Positions 22,638 to 31,357 of a stretch of DNA of 32,000 bases are shown here, piece after piece. This DNA comes from Candidatus Heimdallarchaeota archaeon B3_Heim (GTDB lineage Archaea; Asgardarchaeota; Heimdallarchaeia; Hodarchaeales; Hodarchaeaceae): contig NJBF01000022.1 in the NCBI GenBank assembly GCA_003144275.1, positions 30,001-62,000 of the forward strand, read 5' to 3'. Under the pieces are notes generated by a model. That model was given only the letters and a program-made list of their open reading frames with translations, searched no databases and had not been told where the DNA came from. Both the position numbers and the translations under genes were made by a program. How positions within the stretch are numbered: the first letter of the stretch is position 1; each line of letters begins with the position of its first letter.

Positions 22638-25600
22638 CTAGTGGAAACGGAAATGAACTTGGGGTAATGAGATTACTCCTCGCTCGGTCAATCGTACACC
22701 ACATATTGGACACTCGTTCCTAATCTTAACACTCTGAAGTAAGTGACGGCGATGAAAAAAGCTGGAACATTGCGTACATTCAACTAAATCAACATCGGTC
22801 GTTGTTACGACACTTTTAAGGCAAATTGCGCATGTTAGTCGTTGCGTACAGAATCCACAATTTTTTTGTTTCTCTAAAACAGGATTATTACATTTAGGGC
22901 AATTAGATTGATAACTAGATTGTTTAGGTAATTCTGTAGTTGTTTTAAGAGTACTTTTATAGATTTCTTTAAGACCTGAACTCCACATGTGGAATATTGT
23001 CTGTGGGGAATCAATCTCGAAGCGTTTGATAAATTTGTTTATTGCCAGAGAATATTCTAGTTCGAATTCTCCCTGTTCAGGTAGCTCCATGAGAAATGGT
23101 AAATTTATCCATGAACAGTACTCTCCTATTAACGGTAGAATAGCGCGTTTTATCTCAGCTCTTTGTGATTGTTGATATAGAGAGATGTAGTATTTTTCTG
23201 GCTCAGAAGGTGGTCTTTTAGCAAATCGGGTTGTTAACGCGCTAATAGTAGAATCTTCAGAGATATTAATTGAAGGATCTGAAAGGACGTAATCTAATGA
23301 GTCTTGAGGCAGTTTAGTAAAATATGCACTGAGTAAGGACTCACGTACAGATAAATGCGAGTCATTTAATATGGTCAATATTCTAATATCGTCCTCTATT
23401 GATCTTCCTACAGCTTGCTTTATGAGAGCTGATAAAAGAGCTTGACCTTCATCTGAGAATTTTTTTGTCTGATCATTAGTAATAATATCTCGAATCAGCT
23501 TATAATCATTTGTTGGCCCTCTGAGACGTGAGAGACATTGATCAACAAGAACTGGTCTTAAACTTTTTGTTTTCAGACCTGGGATAATATATTTGAGTAA
23601 GATACCAAATTTCTTTTCTGATAATTTATTGGTATAGTTCCCAACAGAGATTGCAAGGGAGGAAAGATTGTGATCATCAATATTCTCAATAGTTACTCTT
23701 GGATATTTACCAATTATTTGGTTAAAGAGGTTTTCAACGAACAATCTCAAATTTACATCAGTATTAAGCTTGGTAAGACGAATTAATACAAGATACAGGA
23801 GTTTTTTCGGGTTTAAGTCAAGAATTGATAGAATTAACGGTTCGATATTCTTATGATTCAACAATGCAGGGTCCCGAATTGAGAGTATTGCATAGAGCAT
23901 CTGGCTACTCTTGGTTGAAAAATCGGGGATGATATATTTCTGGATGTAGGAAGAATGATTCCTTGGTAATGATATGACAATCTCCCCTAAAATTGGTATA
24001 CTCTTATTAAATACATGTTTTATTAAGATCTTATATTTAGGTAAGCTTTTACTTGATATAGAGGAGATATTTTGCCAGAATTTCACGATGTCGATGTCAA
24101 TAAGTTTCTTTGTAATTTTCAATAACGTCTCTGTATTTTTTTTGGTTTTTTTTTCAAATTTGTTCAAAAATAGAGGTAATACTTCATTTGGACGAAGTAA
24201 AAATACTCTTTCCCATGAGGTGATTAGAGTTTTTTCGAATCCTACTCTAGAAACGAGTTTTTCAATATCAGTATTACTCAGTTCACTAGCAATAATATTC
24301 ATAGGAAACGAAATTTTACTACTAATTTGTATTATTTCATCAAAATGATCCTTAAAGTGGATCTTCAGATAGCTAGCTAAGCTGGTATAGACTGTTGACT
24401 CAATAGGTTGAGAAGTAGTGAGTAATGGAAGAAAATAATTAAAATTTTGGTATAAATAACCAATATGAGAAATATATTTATTTTTTATTAAGTAATTGCT
24501 GATATTACCCACTGTTTTTGCATCAAAACTTTCTAGAAGTCGAGATACTCGTTTTCTTCTAGTGTAATATTGTTGTTGGATGATTTGCTCTATTAACTTT
24601 TTCCATTGAGTTGTTTTTAGGGAATTGAGTGAAGGACGGAGTATGTTCTGAATATTTGTATCTTTGGTTTGAAAATAAGAATCGATTACTCGTTTTATAT
24701 CGAGTGTAGAGTAATTCTGAAATTCTGAAGTAAAGAATTGTGCATATTTGTTTAGATCCTTTTCGAGAAGTGTGAGAAGGAAAAAAAGATAGTCAATTCC
24801 GTGAGAGTCTTTTTGTGCATCTAAATATTTCAATATTGATGATGCGCTTGTAAACAGTAAAGATTCAAGTGTATCAGATAGGAAAGAAATTTCTTTTTCA
24901 GTTTCATGACGGGTAATTTGAGAAAAGTAGGCGATAATTAATGGGTTTGTTTGTGTTTGTTGTTTAAGAGAGACTGCATTTAAAATTGCACCATTCGTTA
25001 GGTTTTTTGATACAAGCCATTCAATAAATTGTTGCTGTGCTTTATTGGAAGAATTACTGAACCTATGAATCAGAAAAGTAAGCTCCTCACGTGAACTATC
25101 AAATATTTTTAAAAAGATCGGTATCTTTTGAGGAGAAATCTTATTTGGTAGATTTTCGGATGAGCAAGCATTAATTAAATTGTCTTTAGAAACTTCTCGA
25201 AAAAGTGGGAGTATTAGATCAGTGGGTTGTTTCATGTAGCTCTGTAAGATAAGATATAATACTCTAACATCACATTTTACCCAAAGGATTAATAATTCAA
25301 TAAGATCCATATTTTTATTCTTAACTGCCGTTCTATAAGCTTCTTCACTTAATTTCGGATTAAACTGACCCAGTATTCCTTTGGTTATCGATTTATTACA
25401 CATTCCCCAGTTCTCAATTAACTTGTTTAAGAACATCTCCTGTACCTCCATTTCAAGTGCAAGTATTGAATCAAGAAATGCTGTGTTTGTAAATACGCTT
25501 AATAAATGATTAAATCGGTCTGGGTTCAACTCATCAAGATGATTCAAAATATGTGCTAAGCTTTGAGGTAATAATTGTTCAAAACCATATATCATCTGTT

Positions 25601-25796
25601 TAGTTTCATTATTTTCCCGAAAATTATCGAAAAAAATTCTTATGGCGTGATCAGGACTCTCCTTTACTAGATTATTGATTTTCTTTTTCCATATAAACGG
25701 TACTCGTCCAAAAGAAATCTTTTCATAATCAGATTTTTCCATTGCAGTCATTAGTCCTGATATCACTATGAAGTCTGGGTAATCATTTGTACTCAA
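22638..25796 (-). CDS. Large helical (alpha-solenoid-like) protein with C-terminal Zn finger plus RING-type domain
   Basis: 1052 aa, Leu/Ile-rich amphipathic segments with no TM or enzyme motif; C-terminal CxxC-x10-CxxC-x5-CxxC-x14-CxxC-x4-HxxH-x10-CxxC at 22901-22701. Confidence 0.8.
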   Translation of the reverse strand: MSTNDYPDFIVISGLMTAMEKSDYEKISFGRVPFIWKKKINNLVKESPDHAIRIFFDNFRENNETKQMIYGFEQLLPQSLAHILNHLDELNPDRFNHLLSVFTNTAFLDSILALEMEVQEMFLNKLIENWGMCNKSITKGILGQFNPKLSEEAYRTAVKNKNMDLIELLILWVKCDVRVLYLILQSYMKQPTDLILPLFREVSKDNLINACSSENLPNKISPQKIPIFLKIFDSSREELTFLIHRFSNSSNKAQQQFIEWLVSKNLTNGAILNAVSLKQQTQTNPLIIAYFSQITRHETEKEISFLSDTLESLLFTSASSILKYLDAQKDSHGIDYLFFLLTLLEKDLNKYAQFFTSEFQNYSTLDIKRVIDSYFQTKDTNIQNILRPSLNSLKTTQWKKLIEQIIQQQYYTRRKRVSRLLESFDAKTVGNISNYLIKNKYISHIGYLYQNFNYFLPLLTTSQPIESTVYTSLASYLKIHFKDHFDEIIQISSKISFPMNIIASELSNTDIEKLVSRVGFEKTLITSWERVFLLRPNEVLPLFLNKFEKKTKKNTETLLKITKKLIDIDIVKFWQNISSISSKSLPKYKILIKHVFNKSIPILGEIVISLPRNHSSYIQKYIIPDFSTKSSQMLYAILSIRDPALLNHKNIEPLILSILDLNPKKLLYLVLIRLTKLNTDVNLRLFVENLFNQIIGKYPRVTIENIDDHNLSSLAISVGNYTNKLSEKKFGILLKYIIPGLKTKSLRPVLVDQCLSRLRGPTNDYKLIRDIITNDQTKKFSDEGQALLSALIKQAVGRSIEDDIRILTILNDSHLSVRESLLSAYFTKLPQDSLDYVLSDPSINISEDSTISALTTRFAKRPPSEPEKYYISLYQQSQRAEIKRAILPLIGEYCSWINLPFLMELPEQGEFELEYSLAINKFIKRFEIDSPQTIFHMWSSGLKEIYKSTLKTTTELPKQSSYQSNCPKCNNPVLEKQKNCGFCTQRLTCAICLKSVVTTTDVDLVECTQCSSFFHRRHLLQSVKIRNECPICGVRLTERGVISLPQVHFRFH

Positions 25797-26103
25797 AAAG
25801 TTAGCGATATAGGGTTGTTAATAATAAGTTATTATACTTGTGTATTTCGAGGCAATATTAGAGATGTCTACGGGCTCTTTTATGCTAATGGTATATAAAT
25901 TAAACACATTTATTCATAAAAGTCTTTCTTCTAGTTTGATAATGTATTACAAGCTATTAAACTTAACAAGAATTCAAAAAGAGGATTGGGAATATACCGT
26001 GACATCCTGAAGAGATTCTGGAAAGGATTATGGTTAAGCTATTCACTTAGTTAGATGATGCAAAATTGTTAAAAGCAACCCATCTTTCTTTTTTCAATGT
26101 ATT

Positions 26104-26156: not shown

Positions 26157-26543
26157 ATGTCAAACGATAAACAACAACCAAATTGGCTGTTTAACCGATA
26201 TAACACAAGCCAAGGAATCATTCGCCAACTTACGAAAGGAATGAGTGCGCAAATATTTGTAGGTGATAATTCAATGCTATCTATAGCACGCTTAGAACCA
26301 CACACACAAGGAGAACTTCATAGTCACCCCGAAGAGCAATGGGGATTTTTATTAGAAGGAGAATGTGTTCGGATCCAGGAGGGTAAAGGAATACATGTAA
26401 GTATGGGTGATTTTTGGCATACACCAAGCAATGTTCAACATGGGATTCGTTCAGAAGAACAAGCAGCAGTTGTGTTAGACTTTTTCAGTCCGCCACGCCC
26501 TGAATACCGTGAAGTAGGTAAAGGATTCGGAATAGCAAAGTAG
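26157..26543 (+). CDS. Cupin domain protein
   Basis: HSHPEEQ...G and G-D-x2-H-x-P-x-N-x-x-H-G cupin motifs; DFFSPPR. Confidence 0.9.
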   Translation: MSNDKQQPNWLFNRYNTSQGIIRQLTKGMSAQIFVGDNSMLSIARLEPHTQGELHSHPEEQWGFLLEGECVRIQEGKGIHVSMGDFWHTPSNVQHGIRSEEQAAVVLDFFSPPRPEYREVGKGFGIAK

Positions 26544-30246: not shown

Positions 30247-30445
30247 AAATTCAAAATCTTTTGTTTAACTTTTATCGTTTCCATCTTTGTTGATTTTAGC
30301 AGTAATTAAGTAGAATGAAGACAAAAAATTATGTCCTGCGGATATTTTGTCGAGAATTATTTATTATTAGTTGAGCCTTTATTTTTCATGTAGAATTTCC
30401 CTGAATAAGGCGATAACTGGGATAAATTCTCTAGGTGTCTGGCGG

Positions 30446-31357
30446 ATGACATTACTTTCAGTCAAGGTGTTTGATGATGCGAATGAAGAAATTGTCTCTA
30501 CAATTTCTGTCACTCCTGATAATTGTCAGACTTCTGCTTCTTTACCAGCCATTCGTAGGCTATTACTTCAGAATAATAATACTCAACCTATTCAAGGGTG
30601 GGTTTGTGGAGACAAGCTCCTAGCCTTTTCATATTTAAATTCACAAAAAGTACTTTTGCTTGCCATTGCCAGTAAAAATACTTCTTTCTCAAAACTTCAA
30701 TCTTTTCTAGAATTATTAGGAAAATCCTACAAGCCAGGACTATTTGAAAAACATCAGCCTTCTTTCCAAAAAGATTTTCAGGACATCTGTGATTCTGTTG
30801 TTAGAATGGTGGATTCCTCAACGACACTAAGTATTTCATTATTAGGACTCGCTCGTTCGGGAAAGACAACTTTCATTCAACAACATATAATCGAACAGCA
30901 ACTAGCAGGCTTTAATTCGTATAAACCAACAAGACTAGTTAACATCGTATCACATGAAAGGTCTACACCCAGTCCACATATACGTTTTTACGACCTTGGA
31001 ATGGCTTTCCAACAACATTGGTGGAAATTTAGTACAGAGTCAGATGGTTATATTTTCTTTGTAGATATCTCAGATAATCGGTCTATTAATGCCTCAAAAG
31101 AATTATTAGAGGAAATTCGTAACTTTTGGGATTTGCCATATGTGATTGCTGCTAATAAAATTGATATTGGCTCCATCAAGAATGTGAGAAGATATCTTTC
31201 TAGGAAATTACTTGTACCTATTCGATTGATTTACGAAACTGAATCCGTAACAGGAGTTGGCTTCGATCCTTTACTTGAGGGGATGCTTTCAGAGATTCAT
31301 AAGAACAGATCTTATTCCTCAATTATTCAGCCTCAGCCGACGAAGAACGAATTCTAA
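30446..31357 (+). CDS. Arf/Sar-like small GTPase fused to an N-terminal longin-like domain
   Basis: G1 GLARSGKT (30845-30868), G2 KPT, G3 DLGM (30992-31003), DGYIFFVD, G4 NKID (31154-31165), G5 ESVTG; about 125-aa N-terminal alpha/beta domain. ATG at 30446 has upstream AGGTG/GGCGG. Confidence 0.8.
   Translation: MTLLSVKVFDDANEEIVSTISVTPDNCQTSASLPAIRRLLLQNNNTQPIQGWVCGDKLLAFSYLNSQKVLLLAIASKNTSFSKLQSFLELLGKSYKPGLFEKHQPSFQKDFQDICDSVVRMVDSSTTLSISLLGLARSGKTTFIQQHIIEQQLAGFNSYKPTRLVNIVSHERSTPSPHIRFYDLGMAFQQHWWKFSTESDGYIFFVDISDNRSINASKELLEEIRNFWDLPYVIAANKIDIGSIKNVRRYLSRKLLVPIRLIYETESVTGVGFDPLLEGMLSEIHKNRSYSSIIQPQPTKNEF

Follow-up and report, generated by a model that had tools for sequence, protein, structure and literature searches.

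A HEAT/ARM-like helical protein with a zinc ribbon and RING finger tail in a Heimdallarchaeota archaeon, and the likeness of its tail to those of IFT-A and GATOR2 subunits

To our knowledge, the subunits of GATOR2, HOPS/CORVET and IFT-A that combine a beta-propeller, an alpha-solenoid and a RING finger have no accepted prokaryotic ancestors. The GATOR2 subunits WDR24, MIOS and WDR59 (Sea2, Sea4 and Sea3 in SEACAT; PDB 7UHY, 8ADL) carry a beta-propeller, pair with Seh1/Sec13 and form RING-RING heterodimers. The IFT-A subunits IFT144/WDR19 and IFT122 (PDB 8FH3, 8BBG, 9A2D, 8F5O) are ciliary proteins with two N-terminal WD40 propellers and TPR-like repeats, and they place a zinc ribbon and then a RING-like domain after the helical repeats. 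The RING-H2 ubiquitin ligases (E3 enzymes), such as RNF4, RNF24, RNF126 and Arkadia/RNF165, have no ribbon in front of the RING; their second ligand pair is CxH and their third HxxC, and most possess a ‘linchpin’ Arg or Lys. The subject of this article is a gene of the Asgard archaeon Candidatus Heimdallarchaeota archaeon B3_Heim, on the minus strand at positions 22638-25796 of a 32,000-nucleotide stretch of contig NJBF01000022.1 (positions 30,001 to 62,000; assembly GCA_003144275.1), hereafter called the window. Its product joins a long helical scaffold to a tail with a zinc ribbon and a RING. An earlier interpretation made from the letters of the DNA (the sequence-only reading) had likened the tail to those of GATOR2 and had proposed the whole protein as a relative of protocoatomer-type or TORC1-regulatory scaffolds. 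The protein is a real, uncharacterised variant of the RING-finger scaffold, and its wider interest lies in the likeness of the tail to the tails of IFT-A and GATOR2 rather than in GATOR2 ancestry.

The zinc tail and the Asgard cassette

Translation confirms that the gene is a single long open reading frame (ORF) of 1,052 codons, counted from a TTG. Its parts, in window coordinates and with lengths in amino acids (aa), are these:

22638..25796 (-), whole ORF, 1,052 aa from TTG, stop included; 20 full-length homologues of 1,024-1,066 aa, 26-66% identity
25557..25751 (-), conserved N-terminal segment, residues 16-80 (AMEK...SFGR.PF.WKKKI...QMIYG.E), from the alignment and a low-confidence model
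22962..25559 (-), predicted HEAT/ARM-like alpha-solenoid, residues ~80-945, ~60 helices, from an AlphaFold2 model, DSSP, Foldseek and VIA
22848..22901 (-), C4 zinc ribbon C966/C969/C980/C983 (CPKC-x10-CGFC), invariant in 63 cassettes, with DZR and zinc-ribbon Pfam matches; aligns with the first zinc site of IFT144/WDR19
22701..22832 (-), RING finger with C4-H2-C2 ligands, from zf-RING_2 (E=5.5e-6), RNF24 and RNF4 alignments, the cassette model and residue statistics
22641..22700 (-), tail past the last Cys, residues 1033-1052, with conserved L..V..LP...F.F, from a 5-sequence tail alignment and conservation over 20 members

Residues 966-1032 read CPKC-x10-CGFC-x5-CAIC-x14-CTQC-x4-HRRH-x3-S-x6-CPIC, exactly the spacing given in the sequence-only reading. 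The tail, of ~85 residues, should bind three zinc ions, one in the C4 ribbon and two in the RING. The RING ligands are C989, C992, C1007, C1010, H1015, H1018, C1029 and C1032; in the predicted cross-brace, C989/C992/H1015/H1018 would form site 1 and C1007/C1010/C1029/C1032 site 2. RNF24 is found as a single-sequence match to the tail (E=2e-4), and an alignment anchored on it shows that the order of the ligands differs from both C3HC4 and RING-H2, as had been claimed: C-x-x-C stands in the second pair in place of the usual C-x-H, and H-x-x-H makes up the third. In its first half the RING therefore looks PHD-like (Pfam PHD, E=0.005; matches to the PHD of KMT2D). A model of this protein's tail, built on the alignment of 63 cassettes described below, has a mean per-residue confidence (pLDDT) of 89.3 and a predicted template-modelling score (pTM) of 0.75, and RING and U-box chains superpose on it with Z 6.0-6.8 and a root-mean-square deviation (rmsd) of 1.6-2.2 Å over 51-57 residues. 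By its ligand spacing and its modelled beta-beta-alpha RING/U-box fold, the tail is a member of the RING finger superfamily. A Pfam scan of the protein at E<=1 returned only zf-RING_2, below threshold, and Zn_ribbon_15. Two NCBIfam matches, to PigC and to an antiporter subunit E, were rejected as spurious, their scores being far under the cut-offs of those families.

The same ~85 residues end many other proteins. In an exhaustive HMMER search they were found at the end of ~65 further clusters of proteins, which range from 64 to 1,687 aa. In an alignment of 63 cassettes, of 23-81% identity, every one of the 12 Cys/His ligands is invariant or almost so (for C50 and H61, at least 90%); the motif is therefore not a chance pattern. 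The cassette is always C-terminal and has the spacing CxxC-x10-CxxC-x5/6-CxxC-x11-15-C(P)xC-x4-HxxH-x10-CPxC. Its profile finds the present ORF with 84 bits (E=2.6e-23, profile positions 3-82 of 84), with the same 12 ligands and spacing; what sets the protein and its close relatives apart, besides residue changes in the RING discussed below, is the added HEAT/ARM solenoid of ~860 residues. In a sample of 301 Asgard genomes, 205 have a match at E<=1e-8. Several have at least 18 such matches, 18 being the number scored per genome, and one large Asgard family has none in the 76 genomes searched. In its own genome the full cassette occurs in this ORF only; five other places match the RING half alone, and in one of these a stop codon breaks the match.

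The domains that precede the cassette are diverse. They include leucine-rich repeats, a PCI domain and TrmB-like winged helices, and, among surface-type proteins, right-handed beta-helix/NosD/DUF2341 domains, Ig-like repeats and a family-5 solute-binding domain; many of the surface-type proteins begin with hydrophobic segments that resemble signal or anchor sequences. Examples of these are encoded at L014, L015, L016 and L017 (genome G038) and at L023 (G119), and they resemble receptor-like transmembrane RING ligases. P0062, a protein of 690 aa, has a PCI domain of the type found in the proteasome lid, COP9 and eIF3 with a terminal cassette, and cassette ORFs of a similar length (~690-699 aa) recur in many genomes of one Heimdall-class family. 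The sequence-only reading had likened this RING variant to that of GATOR2; its presence on unrelated Asgard proteins, as a promiscuous cassette, is the first half of what that reading itself had said would count against it.

The cassette has no dedicated Pfam family, and NCBI lists its members under ‘RING finger protein’. All 63 members match zf-RING_2 (best E=9e-10) and 60/63 match Prok-RING_1, these and the DZR matches being below or near threshold. Weak matches are also made to zinc_ribbon_16 (37/63) and zf-RING_16 (28/63), which we take to be the families of the MIOS tail and the WDR59/WDR24 tails respectively.

Likeness to IFT-A and GATOR2 tails

The solved structures were searched with the profile of 63 sequences, in which the whole cassette corresponds to profile positions ~5-83. 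Almost all chains that align over the whole cassette are C-terminal domains of coat-like eukaryotic proteins:

IFT144/WDR19, E=7.5e-8, residues 1248-1325 of 1,342
IFT144 of other species, E=6e-7 to 3e-5
MIOS, E=1.1e-5
WDR24, E=1.8e-5, residues 714-782 of 790
WDR59, E=8.6e-5, residues 901-964 of 974
IFT122B, E=9e-5

Generic RINGs match the RING half only, and there they give the best sequence matches (RNF4, E=2.8e-12; RNF126 and Arkadia/RNF165, ~1e-7), sharing with the cassette the cross-brace fold, the Ile of loop 1 and the Pro of loop 2. The residue alignment with WDR19 1248-1325 contains one one-residue gap, and the spacing is the same over 78 residues. Structural comparison gives a similar picture. 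Foldseek, queried with the cassette model, places IFT144 at ranks 1 and 3 and GATOR2 at most of ranks 2-14, followed by SEA and IFT122, and the alignments with these chains span 73-94 columns versus ~55 for generic RING and U-box domains. VIA aligns IFT144 over 84 of 88 residues (Z 6.7, rmsd 5.1 Å) and WDR24 over 78 residues (Z 5.5-5.9, rmsd 6.6-6.7 Å), and the neighbours of the model in the ESM Atlas include eukaryotic clusters with Pfam Zf_2nd_IFT121 and Zf_IFT144_1st. Human IFT144 retains the ribbon and RING site 2 and has lost site 1, having neither the second Cys of the first pair nor the HxxH. This agrees with the structure of IFT-A, in which there are two zinc sites and a degenerated one, site 1 being NZF-like and site 2 RING-like (PMC10066299).

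As judged from these alignments, the cassette shares its bipartite architecture and its spacing with the tails of IFT-A and GATOR2, and common descent with them is plausible. The tail of the present protein can be classed by sequence and modelled fold with the IFT-A zinc-binding domains, as a likeness of domains and not as membership of IFT-A. The earlier comparison with GATOR2 is upheld to the extent that the solved chains matched at whole length, by profile hidden Markov model, by Foldseek (ranks 1-14) and by VIA, are those of IFT-A and GATOR2/SEACAT; its preference for GATOR2 is not, since the cassette appears no closer to GATOR2 than to IFT-A and IFT144 is the better match.

The link between the tail and these complexes is moderate, for several reasons. 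When the profile was shortened, as a control, to the ribbon and the first half of the RING up to the HxxH pair, it had C2H2 arrays, PHD fingers and ribosomal L40e as its top matches and found MIOS, IFT144 and WDR24 with E=6e-4 to 1e-2; this loss of specificity indicates that HMMER E-values on the Cys-rich cassette are inflated and that the ribbon alone is unspecific. Pirh2, whose RING is preceded by unrelated zinc fingers, is the exception among the whole-cassette matches and aligns over profile positions 8-77. In rigid-body Z, IFT144 and WDR24 only tie with U-box and RING domains (Z 6-6.8 over 51-65 residues). The signal emerges only with the 63-sequence profile: a profile made from the tails of this protein's own family reaches only IFT144 with E=0.1 and IFT122B with E=6.5 and finds no chain of GATOR2, and the tail of the protein itself has no match at E<=1 to the GATOR2-type Pfam families PF17034 and PF17120. 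Finally, in models of GATOR2 the eight C-terminal domains together hold 32 zinc ions, four each (PMC12507694), versus the 12 ligands and three predicted sites here.

The likeness does not appear to extend to the scaffold. An AlphaFold2 model of the whole protein, made from a 7-sequence alignment, has a mean pLDDT of 81, and its residues ~80-945 fold into ~60 helices, each of 8-19 residues; this region is all-helical by DSSP, and its block pLDDT lies mostly at 80-94. No strand occurs before residue 960 of the model and no WD40 repeat was found in the Pfam scan at E<=1, so that the region is modelled as an alpha-solenoid without a beta-propeller; the helical region of ~960 aa and the absence of an N-terminal propeller had both been correctly anticipated from the sequence. 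Foldseek and VIA were queried with the whole 1,052-residue model rather than with single domains. Among the matches listed there are only generic HEAT/ARM solenoids, such as the importin-beta family, FANCI/FANCD2, CAND1, SF3B1, MMS19, UTP10/20, Integrator and, at Foldseek rank 40, listerin (9ofv_e). Their template-modelling (TM) scores of 0.1-0.2 and Z of at most 8.4 are under the level at which a match between helical repeats means more than a common arrangement. No chain of GATOR2, SEA, IFT-A or HOPS is among the top 50 matches listed for either program. In these searches with the whole model, the scaffold appears generic and shows no protocoatomer affinity.

These results bear on the origin of the eukaryotic domains. 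With its abundance in Asgard genomes and the same layout and spacing of ribbon and RING, the cassette is a testable candidate source of the C-terminal assembly domains of GATOR2, HOPS/CORVET and IFT-A. In the solenoid family, which belongs to the archaeal order placed nearest eukaryotes, it is already joined to a long solenoid, and this family also shows the loss of residues associated with the activation of ubiquitin transfer by ligases. A bolder proposal would derive the C-terminal zinc domains that join the subunits of IFT-A and of GATOR2/SEACAT directly from the Asgard cassette, and would make the solenoid family the surviving ‘solenoid and tail’ half of a pre-protocoatomer scaffold whose RING had by then exchanged a catalytic role for one in assembly; this must be regarded as unlikely. 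The claim applies to the tail, the scaffold appearing generic, and the support for specific common descent is moderate. No paper that joins Asgard proteins with GATOR2, WDR24, SEACAT or the IFT144/IFT-A tails was found in the literature. A 2026 preprint names ‘RING-type E3 ligases’, without detail, among the alpha-solenoid clusters common to Asgard archaea and eukaryotes (10.64898/2026.10.28.762692).

Ligase scaffold or structural joint

The residues by which RINGs contact the ubiquitin-conjugating enzyme (E2), namely the Ile of loop 1, an aromatic residue of the helix, the Pro of loop 2 and the linchpin, have roles summarised in PMC13290226. They were compared in 9 members of the solenoid family and 54 other cassettes. 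The other cassettes have Ile/Val in loop 1 in 51/54 cases, Pro in loop 2 in 54/54, Trp, Tyr or Phe at the helix position in 43/54 and Lys/Arg past the last Cys in 33/54. As the cassette is C-terminal to variable recognition domains, like the RINGs of modular ubiquitin ligases, and keeps these residues, the cassettes, taken together, have the look of a ligase handle. The solenoid family also has Ile/Val after C1 and Pro after C7 in all nine members. At the helix position, however, it has Ser in eight members (S1022 in this protein) and Ala in one, and at the linchpin position Gly, Asn or His in all nine (G1033 here), with no Lys or Arg. The sequence-only reading had taken the Ser as a sign of scaffolding rather than E3 function. 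The substitution is borne out by the family; the conclusion drawn from it is weak, because RNF4, which is an active ligase, also carries Ser at this position of the alignment. The joint, family-specific loss of the aromatic and the linchpin argues better than the Ser alone for a RING that is weakened or depends on a partner.

The protein is probably a scaffold of ubiquitin-ligase or assembly type rather than an archaeal subunit of GATOR2. The evidence tips somewhat towards a soluble scaffold of the ubiquitin system with a weak or regulated E3 tail: the solenoid and the N-terminal segment would hold a partner or substrate, the cassette would couple it to the ubiquitin system, and, because the helix aromatic and the linchpin Lys/Arg are lost, the E3 activity of the family would probably be weak, regulated or dependent on a partner. 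The host has a ubiquitin system of eukaryotic type, with four E2-type ORFs and two ubiquitin ORFs above the Pfam cut-off; E2 ORFs lie at G000:C10:19617-19991, C86:27433-27909 and C57:5171-5542, and a ubiquitin ORF at C10:25333-25530. Two clusters of the system lie beyond the window, at G000:C10:19617-29815 and G000:C86:25484-30031. In each, ORFs of the E2 type and one with a ubiquitin fold stand within ~10 kb of a RING protein, of 71 aa in one cluster and 375 aa in the other. Several observations count against a ligase of this kind. The gene is in neither of these ubiquitin/E2/RING operons, its conserved neighbours (an Arf-like GTPase, an acyl-CoA dehydrogenase, a rubrerythrin-like protein and a cyclase) offer no link to ubiquitin, and the two lost residues speak against a strong stand-alone E3. 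The equivalent tails of SEACAT/GATOR2 and IFT-A are moreover not catalytic but structural joints that hold subunits together (PMC9646525, PMC10066299). The last point also favours a non-catalytic assembly scaffold, in which the tail would be a zinc-dependent joint of homo- or hetero-oligomers within a larger helical assembly and no ubiquitin would be transferred. This is possible, if on the unlikely side. It would suit the whole-cassette matches to IFT144/IFT122 and WDR24/MIOS/WDR59, the specific loss of the aromatic and linchpin in the solenoid family, and the strong conservation of residues 881-920 and of the C-terminal LP...F.F tail. Yet the core E2-contact Ile and Pro are kept, RNF4 is active despite its Ser, and with one full cassette in the genome a joint between tails needs a homodimer or a RING-only protein. 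A homodimer prediction with two copies of the cassette scored 0.09, gave no verdict and was used as evidence neither way.

Two further explanations concern the protein as a whole. Descent from a protocoatomer-type ancestor, with solenoid and RING inherited as a unit by the eukaryotic GATOR2/SEACAT, HOPS/CORVET or IFT-A proteins, would account for the shared order of solenoid, then ribbon and RING at the extreme C-terminus and for the best full-length tail matches being GATOR2 and IFT-A proteins. The Asgard order in which the family is found is also reportedly placed closest to eukaryotes (Eme et al. 2023). Such descent is nevertheless most improbable, and the corresponding proposal of the sequence-only reading is not supported here. 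There is no beta-propeller, the solenoid resembles generic HEAT/ARM proteins and no GATOR2, IFT-A or HOPS chain among the top 50 matches listed, and a mobile cassette found on many unrelated proteins can have been combined with a solenoid independently. No protein with propeller, solenoid and cassette was found among 17 long Asgard cassette proteins scanned, a small sample. The zinc ions number four per domain in GATOR2 against three sites here, and the family is narrow and fast-evolving, with synteny maintained while identity drops to 26%. A quality-control ligase like listerin (Ltn1), with an N-terminal docking segment, a HEAT spacer and a C-terminal RING working at the ribosome or another large particle, is very unlikely as well. 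Conserved ends and a variable middle recall the conserved N-terminus, long helical spacer and C-terminal RING of listerin, which is among the solenoid matches and whose RING matches the cassette profile (E=1.1e-4). The structural similarity is generic, though, listerin being no better a match than dozens of other HEAT proteins. No Pfam signal of the listerin N-terminal or RWD domains appears at E<=1, and the protein is ~500 residues shorter than listerin (the yeast chain has 1,562 residues).

The solenoid family and its neighbourhood

Word-indexed and exhaustive HMMER searches show the solenoid-RING family to be narrow, with ~10 representatives at 50% identity plus fragments. All named members are from metagenome-assembled genomes of Hodarchaeales/Heimdallarchaeota-type Asgard archaea, where they bear the NCBI names ‘RING finger protein’ or ‘E3 ubiquitin protein ligase’. 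A single-copy family, it is restricted to genomes of the Hodarchaeales type. In the 301-genome sample, each of the 20 genomes that belong to the window's genus yields a cassette match, the listed matches being mostly in ORFs of ~1,040-1,090 aa. The neighbours of the protein found with a language model were all below 0.8 and uninformative. No transmembrane segment is predicted anywhere in the protein.

Conservation over the 20 full-length members is uneven. The mean column conservation is 0.62 for residues 41-80, falls to its lowest values (0.39-0.5) in the middle of the protein, rises to 0.69 in the last solenoid repeats just before the tail (residues 881-920) and is 0.66-0.78 across the zinc tail. 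The C-terminal residues 1033-1052 score 0.61, and in the 5-sequence tail alignment L97, V102, L105, P106, F110 and F112 (alignment numbering) are invariant. The N-terminal segment, residues 16-80, has dense invariant columns in the 7-sequence alignment and a pLDDT of 33-55. The segment, which has an invariant SFG..PF.WKKKI motif and matches no known family, is the most conserved stretch beyond the tail and a candidate partner-binding region. The translation start may lie at either of two codons. An alternative ATG at codon 16 (position 25751) would give a protein of 1,037 aa, and the homologues P0002, P0005 and P0008 and the ESM Atlas record begin at the corresponding methionine, that of MTAMEK; in the 7-sequence alignment three other homologues have an upstream extension with similar residues, and P0006 starts at the position of the TTG. 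As the homologues are split in this way, the start is uncertain by 15 codons.

Gene order is maintained even around members only 26-34% identical. Genes for an Arf-like GTPase and an acyl-CoA dehydrogenase lie on one strand of the conserved locus. Variable genes follow (an M3 peptidase, an amidohydrolase or a UDP-glucose dehydrogenase), then the solenoid-RING gene, and then, on the other strand, a rubrerythrin-like gene and the cyclase gene. Because the intervening genes vary, we read this neighbourhood not as an operon but as synteny inherited within one lineage, in which the solenoid-RING protein has evolved fast. The gene for an Arf-family GTPase with an N-terminal extension of ~140 residues (30371-31357, plus strand, in the window) stands two to four genes away from the solenoid-RING gene in each of the five homologous loci with a visible upstream side, and this proximity is probably inherited synteny too. 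Its positions in these loci are:

L008:728-1681, Arf-family GTPase
L009:1-770, Arf-family GTPase
L010:1-261, Arf-family GTPase
L011:1336-2229, Arf-family GTPase
L013:1-731, Arf-family GTPase

Between the M3 peptidase gene and the solenoid-RING gene of the window there is a cupin gene of 128 aa on the opposite strand (26157-26543, plus strand). It is missing at that position in the five other loci with a visible upstream side; insertions found there in other loci are an amidohydrolase, a UDP-glucose dehydrogenase and a second M3 peptidase.

No RNA data set was listed as containing the gene, and the DNA data sets listed share few words only with it. The G+C content of the window is 35-38% and falls to 30.3% at 24001-26000, the 5' half of the gene. 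An antisense ORF of 124 aa within the solenoid gene (23974-24348, plus strand) has most likely arisen by chance, the DNA being AT-rich.

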